From the NCBI GenBank assembly GCA_000091205.1, contig AP006502.2: a DNA stretch of 64,000 bases; one strand, written 5' to 3'. Below the pieces are notes generated by a model that had not been told where the DNA came from, did not search any database, and saw only the letters and a program-made list of their open reading frames with translations. Position numbers and translations under genes: made by a program. Position 1 is the first letter of the stretch. Each line of letters starts with the position of its first letter. The stretch comes from Cyanidioschyzon merolae. Taxonomy: Eukaryota. This document shows positions 3,187 to 55,489 of this stretch, in pieces.

Positions 3187-4902
3187 AACTAAGCACCAAC
3201 AACACCACCTTCGAATTGCGCGTGTACAGGTCAGCGTGGGTTAATCGTCTGGCACCCCTCCCCCATAGCGCCCCAGCAGCGAGAAGAAGCTCACCGAGCA
3301 GTTTCCCTTCGGCAGGAGCCCCGCCAAGCGCTGCACAGATCCGCTCGCCTCTGGCACCTCTGACGCCGCAGTCGGTGCCGTCGCCTGCGCACAGATCAGG
3401 CGTGACGCGTCGTCCGATCGGTGCAACGTTGACACCCGGGACGGGTGAACACGACGCCGGTGCACGCGACCTGCTGGAATCTGCAATGACGCTGGGATCG
3501 ATGCCGTCCCCCGGAAACCAAAAGCATCTGTATATCCTGGAGCGTCTAGGCATGCTCATCAATAAAGCATTAATAGTTGTCTTTTCCATGGCGCCGCGGT
3601 TCTTAGCTGGCGACATTCCTCGAACTGCGGCGCGTCGCCACCTGCACATCCCCGTTTTCGGGGAGTTTCTTGTCACATGGATACCTGCTAATCGAAGAGA
3701 TTGCGAACGATTTTGCTTCCAGGGCTAGCGAGAGAGAGTCGAATCTCACCAGAGACCACTCGCTTCGTTGGGGTCTCGAGTAGCCAGGCCACCGTTCTCA
3801 CTGGAAAGCATTTACCGCCAAGAAGAAATGGCAGTCTGGTTCATGGCATATTTCCTAGAATGGGGTCGTTTTGTGTACGGTCTACGTTCCCGTTAATCGT
3901 CTTGTGCATCAGGCTTTGTTTCTCTCTCTTCTTGTTTATCTGTAAAAGAGCAGACACCACCCAGTAACTGGCAACTAGTAAAATAATGTATTTCCCCTAT
4001 ACAGTAAGAAATGAAAGACAGGAAAGTTTTGCGCACGTTCGAAAGTTCAGGTTCAGGACGGAAGATCCCGCGAGCCGTATGATTCTATCGAGCTCGTGCC
4101 TCACGTGATCCACACTGGCGGGTGTTGTGGCGAGACCTGCGCACCTCGTCCGCAAAGCAGTCCTTTTCTGGAACGAGGAGTGCGCTGCCTGCGCCAAAGC
4201 GTCGTCCCGGTCGCTGAGGTCTCCCGACATGTCGTTTCCGGCCGCTGCCGGTTCCAGATCTATGAGAACGTCCGGCTGGATCCCGAATTGACATTGAAAT
4301 CCCAGCCCGTATCGAGTGCACCATACCTCGACCAGACGCCCCAGCGGTATGGGAAAGCCAATCCGTCTCCGTGCTGTATCGGCAACGGCGCGACTAGCGC
4401 TGAACCGGACGCTCCCAGCAGGCTCGGTGTCGGCGAAACGTACTAAATAACCAGCATCTTGTAGAGACTGTACGGGTGGTGGCAGCTGAAAGAATTCGGA
4501 GCTAGGGTACGAAATGATAGACGGTTTCCCACTTGCTGACGTCCATCTCGAAATCGCAGGGACCCCTGGTCCATTTTTTTCACTGACAAACCGTTTACAT
4601 AGGCCAGCGTTCTCCGATTAGGCGCATTTTTCTTTTCTTACTTTTTTCTGTGTTTTTTTTCAGTGCGCGGTGAGGTATCCATCAATCACCTACCTCCGAG
4701 TTACATTACACCCCTGGTCCATGCGAACCTCCTGCCGATCAGAAATCATGCGGACACGTCACCTGGCGGCGCTTCAGTTGAACACGTGTGCGTGTGCGCG
4801 CGAGGCTGCGTTTGACCGCGAGCGGCGGCGCGCGGCCGTAAATCCCGCACGATGCGAACGTTTTTCCCCAGACGTGTTCGTGACTACAAGGCACGTTTCA
4901 AG

Positions 4903-7076: not shown

Positions 7077-7289
7077 AGCACTCCGTGTTCCTGCTCGAAA
7101 CGGCTGCAGCAGTTGCAGGACAGTGCGTCTTCAAGGATGCTGCTGGTGCGCACATGCGTCAGCGGCCGATCGCCTACACCCACCAGATGGGACGGTTTGT
7201 TTGTTATCGAATATGTGCCGCTATCTTTCGCTCCTGAATTAGGTTTTGCGTTGAAGGATCGATGCTTTGGACTTGAGCATGATGGAAGG

Positions 7290-8372
7290 GCTCGTGGATT
7301 GATCCGTAGTTTTAGAATTTTCGGTTGTCGTTTTTGCTTGCTCATCTAGACTCTCTTCTGCGGGACGTCGTTCTGACCCCGGCATCGAGATGATTCGCGA
7401 CGCACGCGAACAAGGATTCGTAAACTAAATAACAGGATCACCCGGTTCGGAAGTGCAAGCGTCCATCCTTTTACTGTTTCTTAAGTGAAACGTATTCATA
7501 GCACGCATTCTTCATGTTTTCGATCGTTCTGTTTCAAGGTGACTCATGGGCGCTGCAATGCACGCCAGTGAATTGACGTCGAAAACAGCATCTCACAAGT
7601 TCATGCCAAAACTTGACAACATATATGATGTGGAATCATCTATTCCGTTCGAAAAACAAATCAGCCTCTCCTTGTGGCTAACGATGAAACCGCATACGAC
7701 AGCAGTAGAATTCCGCAGACGGGATTCGCTCCTGAAGGCTGACGTCTCTTTGATTCATACGGAAAAGGAGCCCGGACTCTGACGAACTTCAGTGATCGCA
7801 GCGATCGACTCCACTGGTGCATGCGTCACCGCTTGGCGTGAGGCGAGCGCAGACGGATCGAACATTCTCGGTGTACTCCCCAGTCTCGATTTTCTTTCGG
7901 TCCTTGTTTCATCATAGACAAGATACCATTCCACAAATCCTCGATCGAATGGAGCAGCGTGTGCTTGCGTTTTCAGCAGGCAGATTACTCACTCGGAAAC
8001 CGCCCTAGAGAAGCCCGTGACCATCGAGCGATGCACCTGGCGCGGAATCCGGCGCTGGCATCGAGGGGGACCTTCTGTTCTCGTCAAGGGCATGAACCAG
8101 GCGCCAAACCGAGCGGTCACACGTCACAGGATAGCCCCTGGAGCACGTGAACCGGATACATCTGGGAAGACCTGGCCGCAGTCAACCGTCACAACAGCGA
8201 ATCACGGATCGGGGCTGTATACCAGGAGCATGTGGATTGCATACGAAGCGTAGATCACAACGACGGCATGTGCACGAACCGCACTGAATACAGCTGGGGG
8301 CAGCGAAATCGGGACGTGACTGCTGACACGAACAATCCTCGACTGCTGAAAACGGAGCTCGATGGATACGAT
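7290..8372 (+). repeat. Copy A of a ~1.07-kb dispersed repeat, forming a near-identical inverted pair with 19293-20360
   Basis: Direct sequence comparison: 7300-7560 equals the reverse complement of 20100-20350, and 8241-8370 equals the reverse complement of 19295-19420. Internal ORFs such as 7546-7782 and 8017-8253 reappear almost identically on the opposite strand at 19876-20112 and 19405-19641. Homology stops at about 7290 and 8372. Confidence 0.85.
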
Positions 8373-8838
8373 TGAGCGGCTTATTTATAGTCGTAGATAA
8401 GAGAGCGAGGAAGAGAAAGCATTCCCCGATGTTTTTTCTCAAAGACTGGTGTCCATAACTGTGTGAAAAGACCGGAACCTTGCTGTATACGTCCGAGTTG
8501 CGTAGAAGACCCTGTTCCATTTTATTCTGAAATGAGTGTCTCGTCATGATGCGACTCACACATAGAATCGCAATGATGGAAAACGTCCGCCATAGCGACT
8601 GCAAAAATCGCTCGACATGCTCCTAGCGGTGCAACGAGGAGCCATCCGACCAGATGACGTTTGAGCGAACTCGACGCCGGAGATACGCCACCCAACATGC
8701 ACCAGAGTCGACGCCTGCGACCTGCTCAGGACCGCGTTCAGGACATTGGCTCGCGTAGGATACGGTGTGAAGATGCTGGCGTCCGTGGTGTCGGTCAGAG
8801 GCTCCGACTCTCCGCCTTGTACTCAGCGAATAGGTTCC

Positions 8839-17762: not shown

Positions 17763-19292
17763 CACGGTACCACTGACGCTGGGTGCTCGCAAACCAGAAT
17801 ACGTGTGTGTAGCTTGCGGTAGCAGAAGCGTAGCTGGTGCATTTGGTGCGTCTCAGGCTTGAGCGCTTCACGAAGATGACATGGAGCGGGCCCTGGATGT
17901 GGCTCTCGTGGTGGTGGCTGTGGGTCTTCATGAGCCGCCGAATCGGCTGCAACGGCTAAGTAGTGCACGCTGCTACTCTGAAAATGAGTATAAAGTTTCT
18001 AATTTTAAATTTTTCACCGAACCATGTCGTCTCCACTGAGTTATTTTCGATGTTGGTGTCACCGTGATTTAGGCCCAGGCGCATCCATGTTTTTTTGGAG
18101 CGGGTCTCTTGAATGCGTCGCACGTTGAGGACGGAGACCGGACGGTGCGAAAGCATAGCGGAACCTGTGGAACCCCGTCGGGCATGCATCACTGCAAAGA
18201 GAGGTCATGCCGCTCGCAAAGTGCCACTGGGAATCAGCTAACGCGGATTCTTAGCACGGTATGTCCCAGTGCTTGGGTCCGCGTATCGTGGTCGAATCAT
18301 GCTCGAAGCTGGGTATCCTTCCGTAAATGATAGCGCGCTCCGCTGAAGCGGTTGTTTTGCTCCTTGAGCAGTATAAGGTCTGTCACTCTACCTTGATTCC
18401 CGTTTATCCTCGAGACTCGCCAGTAACCAGGAAATAGCTTCTCGCTGCTTCACAGACGCTTCTGACTTTCGAGAGCACTAGACCAGTCCGTCCATCGCAA
18501 GTAGAGCGTGAATCGATCAAGCAGTTCGCGGTATGCCGACCCGTCTCATGTACATGATGCGACGCTGAGCGCGCTGCAACCTGGCTCGCCGTACGGAGAT
18601 ACGATGGTATCAGCATTCCCTTTGAAGTACTTATTCTGGACGATTGGTTCCCTTGACTTGCACCCGCTTTCGGACATGTGCTGCTACCGCTTTTCTAGTT
18701 TTGCGTGACTGAAAACCGTGTTCAGCTCCGGATATCGGCGATGTTGGCTGGGTGCGTCGCCACCCGACTGGCTGAATCTATCCAAGTTTCAGCGGATGTT
18801 GTACCTCTTGGCGCACGCACGAATGGCGTATTCGAGTAAACACGTTGCTCGAATACAAAGTCTCCGGGGAGACTTTGGTGTGAGCGCGGCCACCAACAGA
18901 GCAATCCGAGTCGCGAGATGCGAAGCCCTATGGATGCTCCCGTGCATGCCCGCCTATGTTGCGTGCCAGGCCCACGGGACAGGGAGCATCGCGGCGGTAT
19001 GCCAGCAGGGACCCACACGCGACTTGTCGCTGGGACGCGGGTGCGGATTCGTGCAGGTGCACCGTGGCTAGTGGCGCTGAGGAGCGCGGAAATCTTCTTG
19101 AGTAACGGACGATAACGATGATCGCAGCAACGATTTTGGAATGAAATGGAACGGATTGCTCGACATGGATGCATAAATCGAAGTTCAGGCGTCTTCCGAA
19201 GGTCATCAATGCCAGCGTTTGCAGGTGTTAGATCCGACTGAATCCTCTTCATTTCACGTATATCAAGCTTCATATACAGCGGTTTCTTCTTT

Positions 19293-20360
19293 CCATCGAG
19301 CTCCGTTTTCAGCAGTCGAGGATTGTTCGTGTCAGCAGTCACGTCCCGATTTCGCTGCCCCCAGCTGTATTCAGTGCGGTTCGTGCACATGCCGTCGTTG
19401 TGATCTACGCTTCGTATGCCATCCACATGCTCCTGGTATACAGCCCCGATCCGTGATTCGCTGTTGTGACGGTTGACTGCGGCCAGGTCTTCCCAGATGT
19501 ATCCGGTTCACGTGCTCCAGGGGCTATCCTGTGACGTGTGACCGCTCGGTTTGGCGCCTGGTTCATGCCCTTGACGAGAACAGAAGGTCCTCCTCGATGC
19601 CAGCGCCGGATTCCGCGCCAGGTGCATCGCTCGATGATCACGGGCTTCTCTAGGGCGGTTTCCGAGTGAGTAATCTGCCTGCTGATTACGCAAGCACATG
19701 CTGCTCCATTCGATCGAGGATTTGTGGAATGGTATCCTGTCTATGATGAAACAAGGACCGAAAGAAAATCGAGACTGGGGAGTACACCGAGAATGTTCGA
19801 TCCGTCTGCGCTCGCCTCACGCCAAGCGGTGACGCATGCACCAGTGGAGTCGATCGCTGCGATCACTGAAGTTCGTCAGAGTCCGGGCTCCTTTTCCGTA
19901 CGAATCAAAGAGACGTCAGCCTTCAGGAGCGAATCCCGTCTGCGGAATTCTACTGCTGTCGTATGCGGTTTCATCGTTAGCCACAAGGAGAGGCTGATTT
20001 GTTTTTCGAACGGAATAGATGATTCCACATCATATATGTTGTCAAGTTTTGGCATGAACTTGTGAGATGCTGTTTTCGACGTCAATTCACTGGCGTGCAT
20101 TGCAGCGCCCATGAGTCACCTTGAAACAGAACGATCGAAAACATGAAGAATGCGTGCTATGAATACGTTTCACGTAAGAAACAGTAAAAGGATGGACGCT
20201 TGCACTTCCGAACCGGGTGATCCTGTTATTTAGTTTACGAATCCTTGTTCGCGTGCGTCGCGAATCATCTCGATGCCGGGGTCAGAACGACGTCCCGCAG
20301 AAGAGAGTCTAGATGAGCACGCAAAAACGACAACCGAAGATTCTAAAACTACGGATGAAT
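19293..20360 (-). repeat. Copy B of the ~1.07-kb repeat, inverted relative to copy A and about 99% identical
   Basis: Reverse-complement identity with 7290-8372. The 78-aa ORFs at 19405-19641 and 19876-20112 differ from their copy-A counterparts by 0-2 residues. Confidence 0.85.
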
Positions 20361-20966
20361 CCGTACGCACAACGTGCTAAACTTTGAATATGAATACTGT
20401 CCATCTGAGCACGTTAGGAAAAACACCAAAAAGCATGTACAAAGCGAACAGTTCTGTGTTCCGTTCTAATCTGACGCAGAAGTAGACGCTCCATCGGAGA
20501 CTATCGGAACGCGCAAGACCACGAAATGCAGCAATTTCGAGCGAGTCTCGAGACCTGCCTTTACTGCATATATGGGGATCATCGAGAGTGTTTTCGAAGA
20601 AATTGACCCAAAGACGCTGCACTAGCGCGATACGTGCATGCCGTGGCAAACCGCTGCCGCCACTGCCAGCGCTGTTGTCGTCGGCGCAGCAAACCTACAG
20701 ATCTGGGCCATGTCGATGCATTCTTACCGAGAATAGCTGCATATTCAATTCACGCCACAAGACGTGCCCGCAAGAATGTGCTTTTCGACATCGTGCGATC
20801 AATGCCTAGTGCCTCTGCGATCCAATAATCCGGGGCACTCCCGAAGCATGCGGCGTCGTTGCCACGGGAGCGGGCGGCACTTTTCAGACGTGTGCTGTTC
20901 AGGTTAGACAAACGATTCATCTATGACTTGTCTGACGTGAAGCTCTCAATGCTTTGACAAGCCTTG

Positions 20967-29588: not shown

Positions 29589-29744
29589 TAAAGCATTCCA
29601 GGCGTCTCTTGAGCGTGTTCGTCTCACAAACGAAAGTTCGCCAGCGCCCACGCACGAAAAAGCCCTCGTGGCAGCGGTGCACTGCAGTGGCGATCGCCGC
29701 GCTCTGGACTAGACATCACCAACTTACGCGCAGACGCCTCGCAG

Positions 29745-31590
29745 TTTTCTTGGACCGTCCACCCACTACTACTTACAACTTTTTCTCATATAGTTCGACT
29801 TGTAGAGGTTGTCCAACTAAGTTCTTTCGTGTCCAATCTGGAGGTCTTTTCTCCACCACCGCACATCTCCGTATTGATTGCGGCATGAAAGCCTCGATTC
29901 ACGAATTCCATCCGTTTCTTGCCATCGTTGGTTGTACTGACCAATGCAAGCGATCCTCGAACTTTCGCCCTCCTTTCCATTAGCTCTTCCGTCAGAGGTC
30001 CGTACTTTTTTATATCCTCAGGGTTCCGCTGACACTTTTCCATCTCGACCCTCTGAAGTGTACAACCCAGCGCGTGGTGTGTATATGATGCTCGAAACTC
30101 ATCTATCGGTATTGTAACGAAACGCCGTGCACACTCCTTGTATACCCTCGTCGTTGGAGCTGGAGTAGTCCTTTTTGGGTCTTCCATCGCCCTGCTCAAT
30201 ACGCTACTACGAGCATCTGACTTTCATCCTCCTATAGGGCGCTCAACTGATTGAAGAAATTCGCGAACGCCCGCTGCTTCCCACAGTACAAATTCAATCG
30301 CAAACGAGCCCACCGGGGCTTTGTATACTCCTCCCACAGCGCATCCCAATGCGCAATGCGAACTTCCATGAATTTCCGAAAAAGCTTCAAAGTCCGCTTC
30401 TCGGCTCGTCACCTCGCTCAAAGCTGCCAGGTGCTCTTTCACTCCTGCGTTCCAAGTCTCAATTTTCTTTCTCGCATTCATCATGCCGGATTCTCGATAG
30501 TATCTCGCTCTCGGGAATCTCAACAGACGCATTTCTCTCTGACGTAAGTTGCCGTTGATACAATCTTCCGCACGCTTTGGTGCTTCAATGGTTATGATAT
30601 TTGTGTTTCCGGGTTCCGCGCGGAAGGTGCCAGATAACGACTTTGTCGTTGGCGCGGACCCCGGAAACACAAATATCATAACCATCGGTGCTCCCAAGCG
30701 CGTGGAAGATGGTGCTGACGGCAACTTACGTCAGAAAGCCATGCGTCTTCTGAGATTATCGAGAGCGAGATACTATCGAGCATCCGCTATAATGAATGCG
30801 AGAAAGAAAATTGAGACTTGGAACGCAGGAGTGAAAGAGCACCTGGCAGCTTTGAGCGAGGTGACGAGCCGAGAAGCGGACTTTGAAGCTTTTTCGGAAA
30901 TTCATGGAAGTTCGCATTGCGCATTGGGATGCGCTGTGGGAGGAGTATACAAAGCCCCGGTGGGCTCGTCTGCGAATGAATCTATACGGTGGGAGGCAGC
31001 GGGCGTTTGCTAATTTTTTCAATCAGTTGAGTGCCTTGAAGGAGGATGAAAGTCAGAGGCGCGTAGTAGCGTATTGAGCAGGGCGCTGGAAGACACAGAA
31101 AGGGCGTTCACCAGCTCCAACGACAAGAACGTACAAAGAGTGTGCACGGCGTTTCGTTACGATACGGGTAGAGGAGTTTCGAGCATCGTATACACACCAA
31201 GAGCTGGGATGTACACTTCAGAGAGTGGAGATGGAAAAGTGCCAGAGCAGCCCTGAGGAAATAGCAAAGTACGGATCGCTGACGGAGGAGCAAATGGAAA
31301 GGAGGGCAAAAGTTCCAGGACTTCTTGCATTAGTGAGTACAACGAGTGACGGCAAGAAGCGGATGGAGTTCGTGAACCGAGACGTTAACCCAGCTATCAA
31401 TATCAGGAAGTGTGCGGTGCTGGAGAAAATACCTCCAGCGTCGACAAGAGAGAACTTTGTTGGACAGCCTCTCAAAGTCGAACTATATGAGAAAAAGTTG
31501 GAAGCAGTAGTGAGTGGCCTGTCCAAAAGACCAGGAGGCGTCTGCACCTCAATTGAAGACTTCTTGTCTAGAGCGGGTTTCTCGCCACTA
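29745..31590. mobile_element. Palindromic head-to-head pair of 5'-truncated Fanzor/TnpB-like (IS200/IS605 OrfB-type RuvC nuclease) elements
   Basis: The central ~30 bp per side is a perfect inverted repeat: 30589-30616 (ggttatgatatttgtgtttccgggttcc) is the reverse complement of 30657-30684, across a ~40-bp asymmetric spacer. Each arm of ~0.9 kb then encodes, reading outward, a RuvC-I-like motif (VGADPGNTNIITIG), a degenerate Zn-finger region (VTI..EFRASYTH..LGC...CQ) and a RuvC-III motif (KRMEFVNRDVNPAINI). Arm ends near 29745 and 31590 are marked by antisense ORFs 29399-29983(+) and 31218-31976(-), which share the string LDRP.TT..NFFSYSST.RGCPTKF. Confidence 0.65.
29786..30637 (-). pseudogene. 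Fanzor/TnpB-like nuclease, minus-strand copy, more degraded
   Basis: Reading in reverse complement gives ...TFRAEPGNTNIITIEAPKR... (RuvC-I D to E). Frame breaks fall at ~30224 and 30199, then ...TRVYKECARRFVTIPIDEFRASYTHHALGCTLQRVEMEKCQRNPEDIKKYG...GKKRMEFVNRGFHAAINTEMCGGG (RuvC-III DV to GF), stopping at 29786. Confidence 0.5.
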
Positions 31591-31677: not shown

Positions 31678-32409
31678 ATGAGTCGCTCTGTGTGGTTCGA
31701 GAAGCTGCGTGCTGGCATCGGTACGGTCGCGACGCCGCTGCCGCTGCCAAACACCGCGATTCGACGCAGCCAGAGTTGGAGCCGTCGGTTTGTGGCGCGT
31801 ACGATTGTCGCATTTATAACAGTAGCTGGTTTGGCAACCATAGCTTGGCACTCAAGTTCTTGGCGAGAGGCTGTGTTTCCCACGAAAGTGTTCTCGCAGG
31901 CAAGCACAGAGGCAGCCGCAGCGGCACCCGATACAGCACGAGCGGCACCAGGGTTGCCGCGGACAATGCTCACCAAAGCACCGGGAAAGATCCCTTTCCA
32001 GGACGAGAAACCGCCAACCAGGGCAGAGCTCGGTCGAGCGGGATGGACGCTTCTTCACTCGATAGCGGCAAACTATCCAGAGGTGGCCACACCAGAGATG
32101 CAAACCCATGCTCGTCAATTCATTGCATCTTTTGCCGCGCTTTACCCGTGTCCGACCTGTCGAGAGCATTTCCAGGGATACGTGCGAACCCATCCACCTG
32201 CATTAGAATCCCGAGAGCAATTCGTGAAATGGTGCTGTCGTGCACATAACGCGGTGAACCTGCGTCTGGGGAAACCCACCATTCCCTGTACAGATTTGCA
32301 ACTACTCGACAAACGCTGGCGCGACTGCCACTGCGACGAGCAGGAGCCCCAGAACATGATCCGCGCTGCACGGCGCCTGATCGAAAGCCGCCGCCCAAAC
32401 GCCGGTTAG
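31678..32409 (+). CDS. Erv1/ALR-family FAD-linked sulfhydryl oxidase with N-terminal membrane segment
   Basis: The C-terminal domain reads ELGRAGWTLLHSIAANYPEVATPEMQTHARQFIASFAALYPCPTCREHFQGYV...REQFVKWCCRAHNAVNLRLGKP, which gives the Erv1 CxxC pair and the W..H / HN.VN signature. The start is placed at the first ATG (31678) after the track's TTG and is uncertain, and the 5' end abuts the Fanzor arm. Confidence 0.65.
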   Translation: MSRSVWFEKLRAGIGTVATPLPLPNTAIRRSQSWSRRFVARTIVAFITVAGLATIAWHSSSWREAVFPTKVFSQASTEAAAAAPDTARAAPGLPRTMLTKAPGKIPFQDEKPPTRAELGRAGWTLLHSIAANYPEVATPEMQTHARQFIASFAALYPCPTCREHFQGYVRTHPPALESREQFVKWCCRAHNAVNLRLGKPTIPCTDLQLLDKRWRDCHCDEQEPQNMIRAARRLIESRRPNAG

Positions 32410-32840
32410 CGCAAGTGGGTGAACATTTTGTTCGCTTCAGCCATTTTGTGCAAGTCTTGGCGCCGCTTCCAAGCAACACCCTGCTGCCGATGGATATCCA
32501 CGAGCTCGGCTGCCAGCCGTGCCGCTGCTCCGCGCTCTCGTCGCTCGGAGCGAACGGCATCCCGGATGGCCCGCAGCGCCAATGCCGTCGCTCGATGTGG
32601 CATAAGTGGACTTGGAACCTGTAGATTGCGACCGCTGAGCCGGTAGCGCGTCAGCTCAACGACTGGCTTTGCCTGCTCGATCGCCTCTTTCGCGTAACTT
32701 GCCGGATCTGGCACCTGATACTCCCGTTTCAAAATCCAAAAAGCCTCATCGACGATGCGTTGCGCAGTGCTTTTCTTCCCGTCCCGCATGAGTATGTTCA
32801 CCAGCTTGGACAACACAGAATCGGCTGTGTAAAGAGACAT
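32406..32840 (-). CDS. rps7: Organellar (bacterial-type) ribosomal protein uS7
   Basis: ATG start at revcomp 32838-32840. The sequence KLVNILMRDGKKSTAQRIV...VELTRYRLSGRNLQVPSPLMPHRATALALRAIRDA...AARLAAELVDIHRQQGVAWKRRQDLHKMAEANKMFTHLR is collinear with bacterial S7 from the FVNILM block onward. The first ~25 residues of canonical S7 are absent. Confidence 0.75.
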   Translation of the reverse strand: MSLYTADSVLSKLVNILMRDGKKSTAQRIVDEAFWILKREYQVPDPASYAKEAIEQAKPVVELTRYRLSGRNLQVPSPLMPHRATALALRAIRDAVRSERRERGAAARLAAELVDIHRQQGVAWKRRQDLHKMAEANKMFTHLR

Positions 32841-33901
32841 AGCGGAAGCGTCAGTGCACCGACCGGGCAGGATCGTGCTCGAGGTATGCTCTAGACGGCG
32901 CCCGAAAGCGCCCGCAGCCCCTCGAGTCGTACCTAGCTCGTTGACGGTCTAGGGCAACCGTACGTTGTTTGCGAGCCCGATTGTGTTGTTTTCGAGGCGA
33001 TAAACGTTTTCGTGTCTGTCCGGGGTTGCAAAGGTACTCGGAACGGTGGCGGGTACGCTATAGTGGTCGCTCCTTCCTCGACGGCGATAGCCTCGAACCT
33101 CGAAAACAGCCAGCTGACCAAAGAGCTGGGCAGCTTGAGAATCAGCAATGACCCGTCCAAGTAAACACACAACCTCGTCTTCTCCTAGTGTCTCGTCGCG
33201 GGCACAAAGCCCAGACTCGAACGCTTCCCAGTAACAACGACACGAGCCCGTCCAGAACGAGTGCAGCCATGGCGTCGCGCGAGCATGTCGCTCGGGCATT
33301 CGCCTCGCAACGCCGGTGTGCCCATTATCGAGTCGTGCGCTCTGCGTTCAGTACTACGCGGCGGCGGCGGCGGCAATGTACTGCGGATTCGAAACTCGCT
33401 GTTCGATGGCGACAGGTGTCTACCTGTTGATGCGTCTGTTCGAGTCGGTGCTCCCGAAAAGTGTCGGGAGCATGATGGAGGTCGCTCCTCTGCTTACCGA
33501 CAGGCATCTGGCATCCAGGCAGATTCTGGTACGACGCATCGACTTTCAGGCATAGAGACGCCGCAGTACCGCACTCGACACAGTCCTATCGAAGCACACA
33601 GAAAGCGCTCGAAGCGTCGATGCTCCAGCGACGAACTCGAAATGTCGGATGTTTACCATCTCGGGTGGTGGACTCGCATCCGGCGATTCGCGGGTTGCCC
33701 GCGGAGAGAGCCGGGGCACCAACTAAGCTTGTGCTATTTTATCCATGAAAATACATTTATTTACCTAGCCGCTCATCGACGCGTCATGGCGTTCGCGCAC
33801 AGCTCGCTAAGCGCAGCACGTGTGCATCGCTCACCAACGTGCAACCTGGGCGTGTGTGCGCGTGTTTCACGCAAAGGTGTGCGGTGGACGCGAACCCTTC
33901 G

Positions 33902-34756
33902 ATGTGTACAAGGGACACGGCAGCGTTCAGCCAAATGGTAACCTGTTTCGTGGCAGTTTCGGCTCCGGGGCGAGTACGCTCGACCAGCACGCCGCAGAAG
34001 TTGGTGTTAGCGCAGCGTCCGACTGCTCCGCGTCTGGGGGCGTTCGCTCTGCGCGCGAAGCGCCGGGGCCACTCCCGGTTGAGTCGACCAGTTTCGGCTG
34101 GAAGCGACCTACCGCGACGACCTTCACGTGTCGCCGAACAGATTCGACGAGATCTGGCGGAGATCTTTCTGCACGAGCTGGTCACGTTCAAGAAAGTCGG
34201 AAAGGAACTGGTTCCGCCGACGTTCAGAACCAAGGATATTTCAGTCCTAGAAGTGAGCGTCACATCAGACTTACGGACTGCCCAGGTCGAGATAAGCGTC
34301 CTCAGTGCAGAGCCAAGTCCCCGTTCCTGCGTCGAGTGGCTGATGCGAAATCGTTGGGAAATTCGACACGCACTGGCCCAACGGATGCGGCACCAGAAGT
34401 TCGTTCCTGAACTACGCTTCCGCGAGTCTCGCGTGCCACAAGTCATGCGCACGCTGCAGCTTATCGATCGGCTCGCTGCGGAACGCCGGGGTCGTGAATC
34501 AACAGCATCTGAAGACCCAGAAATAATGCAGGCCGCCGCAAGCCCAGCTAGTGACTTTGAAACCGACGATACGATTCGACCAGAGGAACTGTTTTTAAGC
34601 TTACCACCCGCTAAACCTGATGCTGAAGAAACCGACATATTGGGCGATGATGTTGCCAGCATCGGTAGTGACTTTGAAACGGACGATAGAATTCGACCAG
34701 AGGACCTGTTCGTACGCAACCTGCCCGCAGAAACTGATGGTGAAGAAACCGACTGA
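33902..34756 (+). CDS. rbfA: Ribosome-binding factor A (RbfA) homologue with N-terminal presequence and C-terminal acidic tandem repeats
   Basis: The RbfA core is RVAEQIRRDLAEIFLHE...RTKDISVLEVSVTSDLRTAQVEISVL...CVEWLMRNRWEIRHALAQRMRHQKFVPELRFRES. The track's start is a GTG. I used the ATG at 33902, and 33935 is an alternative. The C-terminus repeats SDFETDD(T/R)IRPE(E/D)LF twice. Confidence 0.7.
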   Translation: MCTRDTAAFSQMVTCFVAVSAPGRVRSTSTPQKLVLAQRPTAPRLGAFALRAKRRGHSRLSRPVSAGSDLPRRPSRVAEQIRRDLAEIFLHELVTFKKVGKELVPPTFRTKDISVLEVSVTSDLRTAQVEISVLSAEPSPRSCVEWLMRNRWEIRHALAQRMRHQKFVPELRFRESRVPQVMRTLQLIDRLAAERRGRESTASEDPEIMQAAASPASDFETDDTIRPEELFLSLPPAKPDAEETDILGDDVASIGSDFETDDRIRPEDLFVRNLPAETDGEETD

Positions 34757-35590
34757 TCGGCTGATATCCTCATCACCTGCGTCGCGACGTTGCAGTCGAC
34801 ATAGACCGGAACGCAGCCCCTGGTCTAGTCGAAGTGTGCGCGCCTTCGAGTGAGCCGCGCACCGCTGCCTGCAGCTCAGACGCGTTTTGGATGCTTCTCT
34901 CGTCGAGCGATATTCAGCACCAGAGGATGCGACGGGTAGCATCATGTGCCTATATCCAAACGGTATTAAACGAGACACGCTTCCATAACGCTTTCGTCGA
35001 ATAAATAGGCAAAACTGCAGCGCTTGTGCGCTCCTAGCTGTTGAAGACGGGCGCGCTGGTGACCGAGCCCCCGAGCACGCCTTGCTGCAGCGCCTCGACA
35101 AGTCCACCAGATGATATTCGTCATCGAGAGGCGATGAACGACAATCCATGGCGAAATGATCTGCGGGAAATCGCAACGCGCTTGACAATATGCTAAGGGT
35201 TTCCAAAGTGCAAGCGTCCTGTGGGCGTTTAGGCGCTCGATCGATGGGCAATCAAGCAATCAAGCAACAAAAATGGCCACAAGTTCGACCTGGCGCCCAC
35301 GATCCAGCACCTACCCACGAGCTCGGCGTTGCGCACAGCGTATGAAAGCGCACACCATGATGTGCGCTTTCATTTGCATACACATGTTCGCAGCGAGGCA
35401 TGCAGCGCAACGACATGAGACCCAGAGGCCAACCCAAAGACATCTTCGAGAGAAGTACAGCGCAGGCGATTTTCAAGGATGTGATACGCTCCTGAATGCA
35501 TGCAATCGCGTCTGGATGACGTCTGAAAAGCTGCATCGAATGCATCTTGGATGCCATTGCACCAGAAGCGGCCTGCGATCAAGACGTGCT

Positions 35591-37675
35591 TCAACGGCTG
35601 CTTGCCGGCCTTCGAGGCCAAAGTCGCTGCAAATGAGCTGCAGTTGTTGCCACTGTGGGAACAATTTGCTCCGGTTGAATCCAATCAATGAAGGCCCGCA
35701 ACTCCGAATACGATGAATGTTCACTGTAGGGAAGTTTGTACAGGATACATGAGTGATTGCTTGGCAACACGAGTCGCTCCAGTAGGGAACACTTGTCTGC
35801 GGGACTGCCATCGAGACGCTGGCAACCTCGTGGTGGCCTCGATGCCTGACACCACCCGGTAGCCATGACGCCGATCACCTGTCGAAATCCGAGCGACTGG
35901 GCTCGCCTCATGAACCGCAGTAAACGCATCGGTTGAACGTCCGCCATCCGCACAAGATGAACACACGAAGCCTCCACCCGCTCTGTAAGGACGTCACTAA
36001 AGCGCCAACTATCCGTTGGCAATGATCGCACACAGTCGAGCAGGACTCGACGCTTGCGTTTCCAGGAGGGATCGATGTAGACATTGGTACCCAGGGCTTT
36101 TGCTAACGACGCCCAAACGCGCTCTTTCCCGATGAAATAGGTACCACAGAGAAACAGACTGGGTGCCCGCGCTGCGTCGCGTTGTGCTGTTTCGACGAGT
36201 GCCCGCAAGACCGCCTCCTGGGGCGGGAAATCATACCGCGGATCGCTGTACGTTGTATCGATATGCAGGTATGCGACTCGTTGCACGTGATCGCCTTCAG
36301 TAGCCGCAAATCTGCGTAGAACGGGATCTCTATTCATACAGATCGGGTTGTACCGCATATCACCACAGTGAATTATAGTTTGGCCGGTTTCGAATACCTG
36401 AAAGATCAATATAACTGCACCGGGACAGTGGTTCGCGTCACAAGCCAAGACGCGAGCAACAGGTTTCGCCCCAGGCGAACCGGGACGATCGACAATGGTA
36501 ATCCCATCGGGATCACCAACTGGTAAGCGCACCAGCACTGCGTCATCGAACTGGTACTCCACTTGGAGAATGCTCACTGTAATCGGACTCGCGTACAGCC
36601 GTCGATCACATCCAGGGCGAAAGTGCGTTCGACGCAGGCCTCCATAGTGATCAGCGTGATAGTGCGTGAGAAAGAAATGATAGTAGCCGTCATTGGCCCG
36701 AATCGGGACCCGAAACGAGTCAACCACACATCCGGGTAGGCCGGCGACATGCTTGCTTGGGTGATGGCGGCTTCGAGTTCCATGCATGTTTGAAAGCTGC
36801 CGTGGGTCTGGAGTCTTTCCCGAGCCCGTCTCTATATTCACACTCCGTCTCAATGTCTTGCCAGACTCAAGGTGAGCTTCATCTGCATGGCTGCCGTCAG
36901 CGAGCCGCAGTGCCAGTGATTCCAAAGGTCGTCCTCCCGTTTCTCCGGATGTGTCCGAGATCGGAACGACGGTCGAGGCCACCATACGGCGACTGACGAG
37001 CGTTCGGGCAACAGGTTCCGCGACTCGTCGTTGAATGCCCCACTCGAAGAGCGTCTGTTGACGAGCGCTGGACGCTTCGTGGCGCACGTTTCCGGCGCTC
37101 GAGTTTTTACGCTTCTGTCCAACGCTAGGCTTTGCCTGTCTTGGAACGCGCTCTGTTCGCTGTTCAGGAGCAGGTGCCGCTGCACTGGTCCGTGAGAGCC
37201 TCTCCATAGCGTGGCTTCCAGTTTCGAGCAAGGCGGAGCCTCTCACAGGATCGTTCGTCAAACTATGACCCACGGTATCAGCGTTCTTCTGGTTATCTAA
37301 TTGTCGCGGTTTGGGACGCGCGGATAGCGCTTTTGCAACTTGCTTCTCGCTGATGTCGATCGAGCCGGCAACCGGCTTCGAGGTCACCGCTCGCTCTTCG
37401 AGAGTCCTGGATATCACCGTCTCCGGTCTGAGACTGGTTGCCAAACCCCCGCTGGTATACTGTTGTGCACTGCGCTCGACTGCTAATGTAAGGCAGCGGC
37501 GCGCTCCAAGTGCCGTTACACCAAGCGCTTGCAGTGCTTCATCGAGGCAGTTTTCCCGCCAAAGTTCGATGAGCGCTGCAAGTCGTACGCCATCGCCCTG
37601 CGAGAAGAGCGGTAAATATACCGATGCCTCGAGACCGGCATCCGCTAACCACTGCGCAGAGAGCTCTTCATCCAT
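35591..37675 (-). CDS. SNM1/PSO2/DCLRE1-type DNA cross-link repair metallo-beta-lactamase nuclease
   Basis: The track's start at 37693 is a GTG, and the first ATG is at revcomp 37673-37675. The beta-lactamase block FFLTHYHADHYGGL is followed by the beta-CASP/DRMBL region (...IHCGDMRY..., ...LHIDTTY..., ...VIGVMATGW..., ...YSEHSSYSELRAFIDWIQP). The N-terminal ~300 aa is low-complexity. Confidence 0.8.
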   Translation of the reverse strand: MDEELSAQWLADAGLEASVYLPLFSQGDGVRLAALIELWRENCLDEALQALGVTALGARRCLTLAVERSAQQYTSGGLATSLRPETVISRTLEERAVTSKPVAGSIDISEKQVAKALSARPKPRQLDNQKNADTVGHSLTNDPVRGSALLETGSHAMERLSRTSAAAPAPEQRTERVPRQAKPSVGQKRKNSSAGNVRHEASSARQQTLFEWGIQRRVAEPVARTLVSRRMVASTVVPISDTSGETGGRPLESLALRLADGSHADEAHLESGKTLRRSVNIETGSGKTPDPRQLSNMHGTRSRHHPSKHVAGLPGCVVDSFRVPIRANDGYYHFFLTHYHADHYGGLRRTHFRPGCDRRLYASPITVSILQVEYQFDDAVLVRLPVGDPDGITIVDRPGSPGAKPVARVLACDANHCPGAVILIFQVFETGQTIIHCGDMRYNPICMNRDPVLRRFAATEGDHVQRVAYLHIDTTYSDPRYDFPPQEAVLRALVETAQRDAARAPSLFLCGTYFIGKERVWASLAKALGTNVYIDPSWKRKRRVLLDCVRSLPTDSWRFSDVLTERVEASCVHLVRMADVQPMRLLRFMRRAQSLGFRQVIGVMATGWCQASRPPRGCQRLDGSPADKCSLLERLVLPSNHSCILYKLPYSEHSSYSELRAFIDWIQPEQIVPTVATTAAHLQRLWPRRPASSR

Positions 37676-38619
37676 CAAGTCTTCGTCATCCACAGTGTCT
37701 TCGTAGCAGCTGAAGCGAAGCCAACGCGCGGCAACGTTCCGCTAAGAACGCGAAGCGCACCAGCGAGCGAACAGCCGCTTCGGGCTGCGCTTGGCTGCCT
37801 GAATCCCGCCTGCGTTCCTGTACTCGTGATTGTCCGAGAGATATCCGTTTCAGCATGAAACAGAACGGCTCCGCTTAGCGAACACGGCTATGTACGCCAC
37901 ATCGTGGGCCCTTTCTCATTGTAAGCAGCATCAGCCTTTGCGGGCTTGTTCTGTGACCGCTTGCTTTTCTTCTCGAATGAATCCGGCTATCTATATGCAG
38001 TGTTCGCCTTTCCCTCTATCCCGGTTATCAGCAGTCGAGGGATGTTGATGGCAGCGTGTAACTTCCGATGCCAAAGTTCCTGTCTGTCGTCGATACATTT
38101 CATGCACAGACGGGAGTTGCGATTGACGGTTCGCTTGCCAGGTGCACCCTGTTTGGGTCGGACGTTGGTGGACCTGTTGCAGCGGTGACACTCGAGTGTG
38201 GTCAGATGTTCCAGTACGAGTCCGCTGCATCTCGTCCTGCTCGGGGCGCTTCTCTGTCGCGCGTGAGGGCTCGCATCATCGCTCCGTATAAACCGTTCAG
38301 GGGTACAGGGAGTTTGCCTCGCTCCCGCATTTCATTACCGCACCCAGTGGCGTACCCTATGATCACCAGGTTTCTTTCGGCATTTCCTGTCGGCGAGTAC
38401 TGCATCTGCTGGGCACGGACGTGCACGCTGTACCATGCGAAAGGGGATTTGCGGAACGCGTGCCAGCCCATGATGAAACCAATACCGGAAGGAAAATCCG
38501 TGATGGTGAACAAGTCGGAAAGGTCGGTGCTTCTACGCTTCCCTCGCACACAGCGGTAGCATACGCTCTGCTGGAAGCGATCGCTGCAGTGGTTGCAGTC
38601 CGACTCCAACACCCTCTTC

Positions 38620-39060
38620 CATGCAATCAGAAGAGACAGGGGCATCTGCGAGTATATCCAGTGATCGGCGTCATACTGTCATCGAAAGCACTTTCGTCGA
38701 CAGTCACGAATAGAATGGGGTATGTCTTTTCTACGGAATGGACCATTCGGCATGACGCGTTCCTTGAATTTGCGGTTTGAGCTTGAGAAGACATCGTCCA
38801 GGAACAAGGGCGAATATTTCTCCTCATTGATGCATCCGCGCGCCTTGCTGCGACCTCGATTTGCCTTGAAACGAAAAGATCGACAACTTGAAGAATGCGT
38901 GATTTGGACACGCTACACCTAACCAGAAGGAGAATATTGGAGGCTTCTTCGTATGCATCCGCGAATGATAAGGGTTATTTAGTGTGCACGTGTTCGAGAG
39001 CTTCGCGTATTATCTTGATTCCGGTGCGAAAACAAATTCCAGCGGCAAAACGTCGAAGGG
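38620..39060 (-). repeat. Diverged partial copy (C) of the 1.07-kb repeat family, inverted orientation
   Basis: About 70% nucleotide similarity of 38880-39050 to copy B 20140-20300, with shared strings gaagaatgcgtg, gttatttagt and gcttcgcg.at.atct.gat.ccgg. The minus ORF 38627-38911 (..SVEKTYPILFVTVDESAFDDSMTPITGYTRR) resembles the copy-D ORF at 43391-43681. The extents are approximate. Confidence 0.4.
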
Positions 39061-40524
39061 CCCGCTTCGAGTAGGCGACTGAGAATCCTCGAACGACGTG
39101 TGGAAACCCAATGCCTTATTGCTGCACATGGAATGCCCACGTCGCACATCGGAAAAAAAGTTCAGAAAAAAGCACAAGGCAGGAATGGCACAAGCAGCTT
39201 AGTGTTCCATTTTTTATCCCATACGTGTGCAGACAGATCCACAACTGGTGTTTCGGTGGCTGCTTCGGTACTTTGAACGAACGAAGCGGTGAAACCGACC
39301 TGCTGCAGACCACCTAGATGCATACGGAGAACGCTCCGGAGGCACGAAAGCATCGCATATGTATATGTATATAGTGCATCAACGAGTCAGGCGTGGTCAT
39401 TGCGTAAACTTGGTTGCATGGATTCCTCGTTGCTGGATGCGCTTCCCGGACGGGTCCGCACAGCGCGTTGCATCTGTACTTGCATAGGGTCGCGTTGCGT
39501 CCTGGCGACCGTGTGGTGCTTGTAGTTGCAGCTTGCTACCGGTTCCGCAATAGGTCTGCAACACCTGGAAAGCCCATATCGCTAACCTGAGGGTCTGGAA
39601 GGTGTAACCGTTGTCCACCAAGCTCCGTTGCTCCGTCTGCCAGCATCAGCTTCACGGAACCGGTGAGAATTCGAAGAAAATGAGACTTGATTTCCGACGC
39701 TTTCATGCTCTCCCTTATAAGGAACTCTTGTAGCGAGGAGCGCTTTCGAACCACTGGTCCGAGAATCGCACGAGTTGCGAAAGTGTTCATCATTAAGAGA
39801 AACAAACTGCAGCGTCGTCGCGAAAACGAGCTGCATATCGGAAGAAATGCCATGATAGGATTGACCAAGGATTGTTGCTAGCTGGACGCCGGGAAGACGG
39901 TACGGGCGAGTGGAAATTCTTCTCCTCGAACAAAACGATGCGCACCTTCGAGTTCGTTCATTTTGAGACTTGTGCCCTGCATCCCAGGACTGTTCCTGCG
40001 AACACATTAGGTCAGTGATGGATGTTTAATAGCGCCAGTGGATATTCTGACCGCGCATGGAAACAAGTATGTATAGAATGCTGCGAGTAATCACCTGTGC
40101 GTCAAGGAAAATAATGATGGTGCCGTGATTTCTCGTGTTCGAATCATCATCATCAGCAGCAGCAGTAGCAGCAGCACTACTTATAGATGCACGCTCATGA
40201 ACGATTACCTGAGCATCATGGAAAACAGCATTGGTCCACGTTGCCCTGCATTGGAAGCATCATCAGTCGATGCGCTGCGAATAGACGCACGATCACCAGC
40301 AGCGTAATCAAAGCAGGCTGCTCCATCACCGAAAAGAAAGTGCGCTCGCTTCAGCGGTCGCGAGGCGAATCGCAGCTGCGTGACGATATCCGCGTTGCCC
40401 GACTTGCTAACCATTATGGATTTGAACATTTGCACCTCACACTGCAGAAACGCTCGGCGCTCCATTTGAACCTTTTTTGGCAACGAGATAATCGCCATGG
40501 AGTGCGAGCTTCTGTCGACCTAGT

Positions 40525-42885: not shown

Positions 42886-43389
42886 CTTCCGTGCAGCGCT
42901 CGCTCTGGAGCACCGGACGTCCAGTAGCGAGGGTCGTCGCCTTGAACTGCACGCCGTTCCGTTCCTCTGCCGGACGGGCGAGCGTCACCGAGCACACCAG
43001 AGCAGACCTAGAATGCTGGACTACACGAATAGAACAAGAGATTCCTGGCGATATCGTCGGTTTGCAGCACAACAGCAGTATTGGCAACTGCGCAGCAAGT
43101 CAGTATGGTGTACGCGCACGAAAACGAGCGAGCGTCCCCGGGAACGTAAACTTGTCGTCCATCACCAGGGTAGAGACGAGCTGTGTTTACTTGGTATATG
43201 TTTATGTGACGCCGTCAATCATGTCCATAAAATGCTTATCTGGGGCGTAGCTTCGGGTCTGTATGTCTAGAGGCATGCGGTCACGGGAGCGAAAACGTTT
43301 CGCGACCATGTAGGGTGCATGAATAGCTATCCGCAGACGCTTTTCAGCGTTTTTTGACCGGCCCGCAGCTATCCGCTTCAGCTTCTACT

Positions 43390-43960
43390 TGTGTTCTTTG
43401 AACCTGAGAGGCTACCCCACGAAGTGAGATTGCGTCAGCTCCACGGGTCTCGTCTTCAGCATCGCGTATCCTATGATATTGATGGCGGTGTTGAAGCCTC
43501 TGTTCACGAACTCAATGCGTTTATTGCCTCTCGTCACAGCTTGTATTGTGTCGAATATTCAATTCGAAAGACGAATGAGCCTCTCTTTGTGGTCATCAAC
43601 GAAACTGCATTCCGTAGCAGCATGATACCGCTGACGGGATTTGCCACAGTACGCTCCCGTCTTTTCTGTTTCCAGCGATAAGAGCCTGGAACTTGAGTCA
43701 TCGCAGCGATCGCTTTTGCCGGGGCATGCGTCACCGCTTGGAACAAGGCGAGCGTAGACGGATCGATATTTTTCGATCTCTTCTCCAATCTGGATTTCCT
43801 TTCCGCACTTGTTTCATCACGCACAACATCGCGTTCCATAACACCCCTATCGAATGGAACAGCGTGGGCTTGCCCAGCGCGAACAGGCAAGCGTTCACGC
43901 GCCACAGAGCAACCGTCTGAGGAGCTATGGTGAACACGTACCAAGACCTGACCTCACTCA
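43390..43960 (+). repeat. Diverged partial copy (D) of the 1.07-kb repeat family, direct orientation
   Basis: 43700-43900 aligns to copy A 7780-8000 at about 75% identity, with agtcatcgcagcgatcg, gcatgcgtcaccgcttgg and gcgagcgtagacggatcga. Its ORFs 43391-43681(+) and 43534-43944(-) resemble copy A/B ORFs at the protein level (DET..ERKSRL...DPS.LA..QAVTHAP..IAA.T.V). Confidence 0.45.
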
Positions 43961-44547
43961 AGTAGCAATGATGCGAATGGTGCACCGATGCTGTATAGCA
44001 AGAAGATGAAAATGACGAGCAGAGCGTAGATCGCAACCTCTCGCCCGTGGTTGAAATGCATTGACAACAGTTGGACGCGTCGAAATCGGGTCTTGAACGC
44101 GGCCATCAACATCAAGCGGCTGCTGAACATGGAGTTGGATAGAAACGAGCGACTGGCGTATTTAAAGCTGGGTGTAAGAGAGAGGAAAAGGAAACGATTG
44201 CAGTAAGAACCCGCAGAGGCTGCTGTTGATGACCATGGAAAGAGATCCAAAGTCTAAAGTGTCCGCCCGTGTTGGAAAGCCCGTTCCATTTTATTCTGAC
44301 GTGCGTATAGCGTTATATCCTGCGCGAATGCAGGTCTCGTGCGACGCTCCACAACAAGTTATGGAAACCCGTCGGCATATGGTAGGCAGAGCCAAGTTCC
44401 ATGCCGTGCCTCAACATCATTCGAAAACTTGATCCCAGTGTCTTCGCGTCTGCACGCTGGTGGCGAGTCGCTTGTTGCTGACGACCTCTTCAGATCGTGT
44501 ATGCCATCAAATGCTGCTGCTGCTGCTGCTGCTTGCCTGAGCGCAGC

Positions 44548-55273: not shown

Positions 55274-55489
55274 CCAGAAACGCGCGCATACGGCACAAGA
55301 TCGACATCGAATTTGGGATATCATGGTTCTTTACGGACCATATTGGACTATCGGAAAGCCTCAGCTATCTGGCTCTCATTGTCCAGAAACGCGTGCATGC
55401 AGCACAAGATCGACATCGAATTTGGGATATCATGGTTCTTTACGGACCATATTGGACTATCGGAAAGCCTCAGCTATCTGGCTCTCATT
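55274..55489. repeat. Tandem direct duplication, 2 x ~108 bp, in the FtsZ/TraB divergent intergenic region
   Basis: 55274-55380 and 55383-55489 are nearly identical (ccagaaacgcg.gcat.c.gcacaagatcgacatcgaatttgggatatcatggttctttacggaccatattggactatcggaaagcctcagctatctggctctcatt). Confidence 0.8.

Follow-up and report, generated by a model that had tools for sequence, protein, structure and literature searches.

A probable dead Mariner-Fanzor1 derivative on chromosome 20 of Cyanidioschyzon merolae

The DNA analysed here, called the window, is a 64-kb stretch of chromosome 20 of Cyanidioschyzon merolae 10D. Its large open reading frames (ORFs) contain mTERF, TAF7, DRMBL, organellar FtsZ, glutamine-dependent NAD synthase, and plastid-type FKBP domains (Pfam), and four of the ORF products are identical at every residue to C. 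merolae 10D proteins (BAM83402, BAM83403, BAM83408, and BAM83417). A bacterial source for the window had also been considered and was rejected on the basis of these domains and identities. Four repeats in the window, named A, B, C, and D, are copies of one transposon family, and a fifth copy (E) sits on another locus (L007). A first-pass annotation had placed the repeat of copy A at 7546–8372 and proposed that small ORFs within the family form a protein-coding core under constraint. The repeats are very probably old, dead, non-autonomous Tc1/mariner-IS630 transposons that arose by internal deletion from a parent of the Mariner-Fanzor1 kind, which carries a Fanzor1 nuclease gene beside its transposase gene.

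The repeat unit and its copies

The real repeat unit is approximately 1.35 kb in length and lies between terminal inverted repeats (TIRs), extending beyond the interval first assigned to it. A profile built from the antisense ORFs of the copies and searched exhaustively returned 221 protein clusters (50% identity level, E ≤ 1e-3), all 54–315 aa in length and sharing a recognisable pattern. The consensus of the antisense ORFs retrieved 72 metagenome loci, which yielded 24 further distinct copies. These, with A/B, C, D, and E, make up a set of 28 copies, from which a majority-rule DNA consensus was built. The set has a mild ascertainment bias, as the metagenome loci were retrieved by antisense-frame peptides. 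A low-copy local duplication was also considered, based on a word-indexed protein search that gave four clusters (the window copies and E), and was overturned by the 221 clusters of the profile search. With an 81-sequence alignment as the query, the word-indexed search gave two proteins only.

The consensus unit is 1,376 bp in length, with 25-bp TIRs and TA on both sides. Its ends, CACCCGTGTCAGATGAAAATGGAAC and CACCCATGTCAGAATAAAATGGAAC, pair as inverted repeats at 22 of 25 positions, and the TIR pattern can be written CACCC..TGTCAGA..AAAATGGAAC. Conservation in the 28-copy alignment begins and ends abruptly at the element ends. The TIRs can be recognised in all four window copies and in the majority of the 28. 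Single copies are 1,294–1,470 nucleotides in length, with most at approximately 1,385. Against a background of 3%, TA flanks 9 of 28 left ends (P ~1e-7) and 8 of 28 right ends (P ~1e-6), and many of the remaining ends are one transition from TA (TG or CA). From these flanks, TA is regarded as the putative target-site duplication.

Copies A through D are each 74–81% identical to the consensus and are listed with their features in Table 1. The sense reading of copy C takes three frameshifts. The left boundary of copy A, TA followed by CACCCACCAGATGG, was read by eye and is only probable. This end reads TCGCC-TA-CACCCACCAGATGGGACGG, compared with TA-CACCCGTGTCAGATGAAAATGGAAC in the consensus, and its TIR was missed by the pattern search because of a small internal indel. 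Several hot-spring metagenome contigs that share window genes stop inside copy A, near window position 7479, which is a typical assembly break at a repeat.

Copies A and B form an inverted pair. Positions 7296–8366 and 19292–20362, on opposite strands, are 98.9% identical over 1,071 bp, with 12 differences. The identity stops sharply inside both elements, and the right TIRs are identical at 19 of 25 positions. Global identity between the terminal segments of A and B is 54–60%, and that between unrelated flanks is 57%, so this measure cannot show homology. Homology of the ends rests on the TIRs and on the alignment of each copy to the consensus, which runs through its own termini. Both copies are old and lie approximately 11 kb apart, and the tract likely arose through gene conversion, or replacement, between them in recent times. 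The pair could also serve as a substrate for inverting the intervening 10.9 kb.

A second pair of near-identical family copies was found on metagenome contig Ga0080006_1118312 (L072, 38417–45373; L073, 49077–56033; with L071/L074). These copies are approximately 10.7 kb apart in direct orientation. The pair recalls A/B and suggests that local duplication or conversion of family elements recurs.

Transposase and Fanzor remnants

Both gene pieces became recognisable through the 28-copy DNA consensus, which was the decisive step. On the plus strand (that of copy A), the consensus contains the N-terminus of an IS630/Tc1-mariner transposase, followed by a Fanzor1/TnpB tail in another frame. The suggestion that the repeats have a protein-coding origin is borne out by these remnants. 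The accompanying statement that the core belongs to no assignable family is not, since the consensus passes the gathering scores for both DDE_3 and Cas12f1-like_TNB.

The match to Pfam DDE_3 has an E value of 3e-10 and scores 40.5 bits (gathering score 28.6), and there are weak matches to HTH_33 and HTH_Tnp_Tc3_2. NCBIfam transpos_IS630 is matched with an E value of 2e-18 over model positions 20–260 of 299, at 66.9 bits, which is below the curated cut-off of 100. The first catalytic-D motif of the consensus is FVAIDETAF...GYAPRG, and the second is CFIMDNIAFHKS. The DDE_3 match ends at position 101–117 of the 146-position model, and the third catalytic residue is missing in the consensus. Stitching in a third frame to regain the catalytic E of the DDE domain made the Pfam match no longer than before. 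In copy A, the second D motif is out of frame with the first because of a 1-nucleotide deletion common to A, B, and D.

The nuclease match joins the transposase match in a different frame just past the second D motif. The match to Cas12f1-like_TNB (PF07282) has an E value of 5e-7 and scores 30.2–30.7 bits (gathering score 26.3). The tail is approximately 190 aa (570 nucleotides) in length and contains a GYGTG motif, a CxxC...CxxC zinc ribbon (HLTTVKCHRC), and the RuvC-III motif NRDLNAAINI. Its consensus translation reads ...PVIVGYGTGRGNGG...VDIWEHLTTVKCHRC...RLCMKC...NRDLNAAINILRLL. The [TS][TS]-x-x-C4 zinc finger-x(5,50)-RD motif (Bao & Jurka 2013) is present in the consensus. The RuvC-I aspartate region, expected 125–275 aa upstream, was not found in the element, where the upstream portion is transposase-derived. 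The copies are fragments of a Fanzor gene and not Fanzor genes. A PDB sequence search with the sense consensus gave chance-level matches only.

The two halves are adjacent on one strand and have overlapping open frames in the consensus, an arrangement that could also come from a true fusion of an IS630 DDE transposase with a TnpB-like protein, expressed through a programmed frameshift. Programmed frameshifting is used for transposase production in some families of insertion sequences. A fusion is nevertheless very unlikely, as the third DDE catalytic residue and the RuvC-I aspartate region are both missing. Among the scored relatives, the sole protein with precomputed Pfam domains has transposase domains alone, and none lists DDE_3 with PF07282. 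The related contig that encodes the intact transposase P0231 carries two separate genes.

Table 1. Copies of the family in the window and the features assigned to them.
Feature	Position	Strand	Description
Copy A	7177–8538	+	Full-length, decayed, approximately 1,362 bp; transposase sense strand is the window plus strand; 7225–8538 matches consensus 51–1376 at 75% identity; 12 stops in sense frame
Copy A left end	TA 7175–7176; TIR 7177–~7201	+	Probable; degenerate left TIR
Copy A 78-aa ORF	7546–7782	+	Phase 1 (transposase motif at 7641 is phase 0); overlaps transposase remnant out of frame
Copy A first catalytic-D remnant	7641–7733	+	DDE_3; YSVRKTNQPLLVANDETAYDSSRIPQTGFAP; counterpart of the C/D peptides of the first-pass annotation
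Copy A antisense ORF fragment	7755–7934	−	59 aa; same frame as B 19724–20065 (+) and D 43534–43944 (−)
Copy A second catalytic-D remnant	7905–7943	+	CFIIDKIPFHKSS; consensus CFIMDNIAFHKS
Copy A RuvC-III motif (Fanzor/TnpB)	8307–8336	+	Decayed; NRDVTADTNN, consensus NRDLNAAINI
Copy A right TIR	8514–8538	−	CACTCATTTCAGAATAAAATGGAAC; 23 of 25 positions fit TIR pattern
Copy B	19128–20482	−	Full-length, decayed; consensus 8–1376 aligned, 74% identity; 8 sense-frame stops
Copy B TIRs	19128–19152; 20458–20482		TA at 20483–20484, TCTA flank
Copy C	37842–39229	−	Full-length, decayed; 37845–39229 matches consensus 1–1373 at 75% identity
Copy C TIR	37842–37866
Copy C Fanzor-tail remnants			IIGYATGCGN, EHLTTLECHRC, RLCMKC, LHAAINIPRLL
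Copy D	43491–44307	+	5'-truncated (approximately 427 nucleotides gone); internal deletion of approximately 125 nucleotides
Copy D motifs	43583–43612; 43810–43839; 44084–44113		First D; second D; NRVLNAAINI
Copy D right TIR	44283–44307		TA at 44308–44309

One longer ORF is associated with copy B. This ORF (18722–19426, minus strand) is 234 aa in length and runs from the Fanzor-tail remnant through the right TIR into the flank. Metagenome contigs L014 and L015 carry a gene call for it, but it has the look of a read-through artefact from the decayed element.

The small ORFs and tests of constraint

The 78-aa ORF of copy A recurs in copy B at 19876–20112, on the opposite strand. It was said to be identical there, and 77 of 78 residues match; the difference is H70R, from A versus G at nucleotide 7757. 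Its counterpart in copy D is a 50-aa ORF. The antisense ORFs of copies B and D align as quoted by the first-pass annotation, and the quoted peptides of the D and C copies were found at 43391–43681 (plus strand, YSIRKTNEPLF...) and 38627–38911 (minus strand, HSVEKTYPILF...). The similarity between copies is far above chance, with tblastn E values of 1e-16 to 1e-25. One of the three peptide sets (YSIRKTNEPLFVVINETAF.. and HSVEKTYPILFVTVDESAF..) is in the true ancestral frame and corresponds to the first catalytic-D motif. The other two sets are not in that frame.

Amino acids had been described as kept while the nucleotides drifted. This contrast is not borne out between copies A and D, where DNA identity is 72% over 329 nucleotides and amino-acid identity is 55–59%. 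In the best-conserved stretch, this amino-acid identity is obtained in five of the six frames. Against copy C, too, the six frames of copy A give similar amino-acid identities. An amino-acid identity that is lower than the nucleotide identity and about equal across frames indicates homologous DNA, not a conserved protein. The copies resemble one another in every frame because they are homologous DNA from an ancestral coding sequence.

In each of the 28 copies, the sense reading and the antisense reading are both interrupted by stops and/or frameshifts. Stops occur at 1.98 per 100 codons in the sense frame and 1.80 in the antisense frame. Among the 28 copies, diversity varies by no more than 0.05 between codon phases, as expected for neutral decay from one ancestor, and mismatches between copies show no 3-base periodicity. 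The ratio of nonsynonymous to synonymous polymorphism (pN/pS), by block and frame, is 0.48–1.25, with 0.7–0.9 in the antisense frames and 1.13 in the frame of the 78-aa ORF. The lowest values in two of the three core blocks (0.57–0.59) belong to the third frame, which holds YSVRKTNQPLLVANDETAY. In the block with the first D motif, the transposase frame has the lowest value of the six frames (0.59). A 1-nucleotide deletion in the middle of the core is common to A, B, and D, relative to C and E.

A strain contig (L005) that is 99.4% identical to window positions 32071–44641 allows decay to be compared with the surrounding DNA. Substitutions per kb are 10.9 in copy C, 7.7 in copy D, 7.0 in an intergenic stretch, and 1.7–3.8 in the DRMBL and NAD-synthase genes. 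The difference between elements C and D and the two neighbouring genes is significant (Fisher P 3e-4). A 1-nucleotide indel at 38516 converts the 163- and 119-aa ORFs of copy C into one ORF of 237 aa, and both states of this indel occur among public variants of the copy C ORF. Besides this indel in copy C, the two sequences differ by 3-nucleotide indels at 33357 and 44512–44514 and by a 1-nucleotide indel at 40055 (intergenic).

The antisense ORF of copy E is 174 aa in length and is represented by 11 protein variants with eight variable residues. All five differences between two haplotypes are nonsynonymous, and a third haplotype contains one synonymous change. Nonsynonymous changes make up most of the differences among strains.

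It was proposed that the 78-aa ORF, the antisense ORF of approximately 110 aa, or both are genes kept by purifying selection in each copy. The amino-acid similarity between copies is real, the copy E ORF keeps its 174 aa in 11 population variants, and the central 97 aa of the copy D ORF are invariant among 11 variants. This invariance carries little weight, however, as the population variants are approximately 99.4% identical overall. ORF lengths and frames vary between copies; 1-nucleotide indels separate A, B, and D from C and E, and a strain indel toggles the copy C ORF. The copy E haplotypes show five nonsynonymous changes to one synonymous. Similarity is about equal across frames and without codon periodicity, and all 28 copies are broken with respect to the consensus. 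The antisense consensus has no Pfam or PDB match, the individual antisense ORFs have no Pfam match, and none of the small ORFs has an NCBI accession or is annotated in the reference genome. It is extremely unlikely that the small ORFs are maintained genes, and no sign of present constraint was detected on them. The first-pass annotation had named a dN/dS test across copies as the check on its coding core; frame-shifting, frame-inconsistent indels between copies and the pN/pS range given above, in all frames, are the result, and these were the signs that it gave as contrary to constraint.

In the family consensus, the antisense frame is open for 250 codons and spans the transposase/Fanzor junction without interruption. 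This frame could be a true second gene of the ancestral element that has since decayed, and 221 predicted-protein clusters fall in it. Gene callers choose the antisense frame since it was originally the longest open frame, however, and the retrieval was mildly biased. The frame has no family or structure match. Its stop density is the same as that of the sense frame, with no in-phase periodicity, and it is broken by stops or frameshifts in every copy. A long antisense frame is not compelling as a gene because comparable antisense ORFs occur elsewhere in the window: ORFs of 258 aa (45373–46149, inside a MiaB-like gene) and 305 aa lie antisense to long ORFs. A decayed antisense gene is therefore quite improbable. 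The antisense ORFs are instead shadow ORFs of what was once the coding region. As in other shadow ORFs, a long frame lies opposite a (former) coding sequence and amino-acid likeness follows from homologous DNA. They differ in that the coding sequence underneath is dead, so that neither strand is constrained.

An amino-acid resemblance between diverged repeats on both strands is thus the signature of a dead transposon and not of a new small gene, and the value of the present result is mainly corrective.

Relatives, origin, and other Fanzor sequences

The closest intact transposase is a 307-aa Tc1/IS630 protein (P0231). It begins with MYSLD, as the consensus does, and is 30% identical to it over aa 1–252. 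It has all three catalytic motifs, with the third residue in YNPIE. Two intact Fanzor1-like proteins of 551 and 712 aa (P0229 and P0230) are 42–47% identical to the element tail. The matches begin at aa 301 and 536, respectively, in a frame other than that of the transposase match, and the RuvC-I motif of these proteins (GLDPGRVN) lies approximately 250 aa upstream of the match start. The contig that encodes P0231 (ERZ1426603, 3,273 nucleotides) contains the transposase followed by a same-strand 636-aa PF07282 protein, which is the architecture predicted for the parent.

An internal deletion in such a two-gene parent would have joined approximately 250 transposase codons, out of frame, to the last 190 or so codons of Fanzor1/TnpB. 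The deletion would have removed the transposase C-terminus with the third catalytic residue and the N-terminal 300–530 aa of the nuclease. The ancestral unit would then have been approximately 1,376 bp in length, with 25-bp TIRs and insertion at TA. With no working transposase of its own, it would have depended for its mobility on full-length relatives, with their transposase acting in trans. It may have multiplied in this way to roughly a hundred copies or more, which would have decayed neutrally to approximately 25% divergence from the consensus.

The family shares with Tc1/mariner-IS630 (ITm) elements an N-terminal helix-turn-helix, a DDE_3 core with the (V/I)DET.F and DN...HK motifs, 25-bp TIRs, and the TA target dinucleotide. 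Its size and organisation fit a deleted, non-autonomous copy. Unlike those elements, it lacks the third catalytic residue and the transposase C-terminus and has a Fanzor1/TnpB C-terminal third instead. A typical miniature inverted-repeat transposable element (MITE) is smaller than this unit of 1.38 kb.

Mariner elements that carry a Fanzor1 gene have been described (PUl-1 and PGv-1; Bao & Jurka 2013, PMC3627910). PUl-1 is 3,620 bp in length, with 24-bp TIRs and TA (PMC3627910). Mariner/Tc1-Fanzor associations were also listed by Jiang et al. 2023 (PMC10530073). In these Mariner-Fanzor1 elements, the transposase is followed by a same-strand Fanzor1 gene, with TIRs of 24–33 bp, TA duplications, and a length of approximately 3.3–3.8 kb. 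The P0231 contig has the same two-gene layout. The copies of the present family differ in keeping only the outer parts of both genes. Mariner-Fanzor1 elements are low-copy (1–8), whereas the present family is high-copy and old.

Several observations weigh against this origin. An internal deletion would account for the joined gene pieces, and no full-length parent DNA with the same TIRs was recovered. TA flanks are found in only about one third of the copies, which is expected at approximately 25% divergence but does not amount to proof. In the consensus, all 250 codons of the antisense frame are open, while the sense reading is split. The transposase frame has pN/pS of 0.57–0.59 in two of the three blocks, a statistically weak signal that is compatible with past selection. 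The core of the element is also more conserved than its edges, which may reflect alignment quality and gene conversion.

The element may instead have been kept for a guide-RNA module of Fanzor, either as an RNA gene or as a guide-only satellite. The derivative retains exactly the last 570 or so nucleotides of the Fanzor gene and the right TIR. In characterised Fanzors, the guide RNA derives from the 3' region next to the right end of the transposon, and the Chlamydomonas genome was found to hold additional copies of guide-RNA sequence (PMC10530073). The 3' 277 nucleotides of the consensus are more stable than shuffled sequences (z = −2.8), which on a consensus sequence is weak evidence. Four window/E copies have no consensus structure beyond that of column shuffles, however, and RNAalifold over the element, on both strands, gave nothing convincing against the same control. 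With Rfam, no family reached the gathering threshold anywhere in the window, and at E ≤ 10 no relevant match was seen in 43650–44100. The copies also decay at the intergenic rate or faster. A retained guide-RNA function is accordingly an unlikely explanation. A tRNA-Ala(cgc) called by ARAGORN in copy D (43839–43913, minus strand) is probably a false positive, as no Rfam tRNA was found even at E ≤ 10.

A bolder reading is that the family was a guide-RNA-bearing satellite of a Mariner-Fanzor1 transposon, with copies moved and protected, or homed, by the two proteins of the parent. The deletion would have kept both TIRs, needed for mobilisation in trans, and the Fanzor 3' end with the right end, as a source of guide RNA. 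This elaboration is speculative and on balance unlikely.

As part of the same speculative reading, the parent of the deleted transposon, or its nuclease, may have come from a large DNA virus of Cyanidiales. This is suggested by the virus-like gene content of the contigs that carry the closest intact Fanzor1-like genes (L088 5001–7139, 712 aa, and L089 5001–6656, 551 aa; JGI 3300028372 and 3300035702). The neighbours of these genes, which include Peptidase_S74 proteins (one of them 2,625 aa in length), a 2OG-Fe(II) oxygenase, ATG8, an RNA ligase, and a UvrD helicase, look like the gene content of a large DNA virus or an unusual eukaryote.

Another Fanzor1 family has been described from the same genome. 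Nozaki et al. (PMC1955436) reported 253 copies of a repeat of approximately 3.2 kb with a truncated ORF weakly similar to WSV486 of white spot syndrome virus (WSSV), and only eight class II elements. Bao and Jurka (PMC3627910) described CMe-1A, a C. merolae Fanzor1 family of 3,169 bp with approximately 150 copies and no TIRs, and listed a Fanzor1 element in the WSSV genome. A 2024 paper on dispersed repeats (PMC11050394) is uninformative about the present family. The present copies might belong to this CMe-1A family, the 'WSV486-like' repeat (Nozaki 2007). Both families are in the same genome, have truncated ORFs and Fanzor1-type C-terminal motifs, (V/I)V.YG.GR ... zinc finger ... NRD.NAAINI, and are old, with copies approximately 75–80% identical to their own consensus (PMC1955436, PMC3627910). 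The tail matches CMe-1 by BLASTP at E 5e-4 and at the expected positions (565–686). The identity of this match is only 24%, however. The CMe-1 protein (tblastn) and the CMe-1A 5' DNA gave no matches on copies A, B, and C, though both match elsewhere in the window, the protein at 63–85%. CMe-1A, at approximately 3.2 kb, has neither TIRs nor a transposase, whereas the present family has TIRs, a DDE_3 remnant, and a length of 1.38 kb. There is next to no chance that the two are the same. Judged by its sequence, the present family is distinct from CMe-1A, and it may already sit in Repbase under an unclassified name.

Genuine CMe-1A fragments are present in the window at 29719–31536, 43325–43633, and 3951–4383. 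The first is part of a near-perfect palindrome of 1.9 kb (29686–31589), with arms that are 84.6% complementary and a 30-nucleotide spacer. It is built from the 3' half of the CMe-1A Fanzor1 element, present twice in head-to-head arrangement. Aa 417–723 of the CMe-1 protein match at 30615–31536 (plus strand, 79–85%), and aa 430–730 match at 30619–29719 (minus strand, 63–79%). The fragment at 43325–43633 (minus strand) is a CMe-1-like Fanzor C-terminal piece (aa 633–729, 39% identity, E 3e-14), and it explains a 55-nucleotide match between 31351–31405 and 43474–43528. Because this fragment and the truncated 5' end of copy D (43491) overlap, it seems that one of the two elements was interrupted or truncated by the other. 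The sequence at 3951–4383 (minus strand) is 71% identical over 436 nucleotides to the 5' 630 nucleotides of CMe-1A, a segment reported to be 95% identical to the separate repeat TE-N2_CMe. Further sites listed with CMe-1A 5'-like DNA are 54520–54625 in the window and 1749–1877 of L007. A repeat of approximately 135 nucleotides is common to 4574–4709, 60684–60806 (79%), and another locus.

C. merolae is described as almost without DNA transposons and as having no MITEs (PMC1955436; PMC3964958). Yet these 64 kb contain four copies of a sizeable old family of the Tc1/IS630 type, for which public data hold over 200 ORF clusters. As a probable Mariner-Fanzor1 fossil, the family would be a second Fanzor lineage in this alga besides CMe-1A, and it ties C. 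merolae to intact relatives in hot-spring metagenomes. The finding is ordinary biology, of modest interest.

Further features of the window lie outside the repeats. An ORF at 44548–46842 (minus strand) encodes a MiaB-like radical-SAM methylthiotransferase (UPF0004, Radical_SAM, TRAM) that is unusual in being fused, at its N-terminus, to a parvulin-type PPIC rotamase domain. Tandem duplications inside long ORFs are located at 55274–55489 and 34538–34765; they consist of two 107-nucleotide units at 97% identity and two 111-nucleotide units at 77–82%, respectively.

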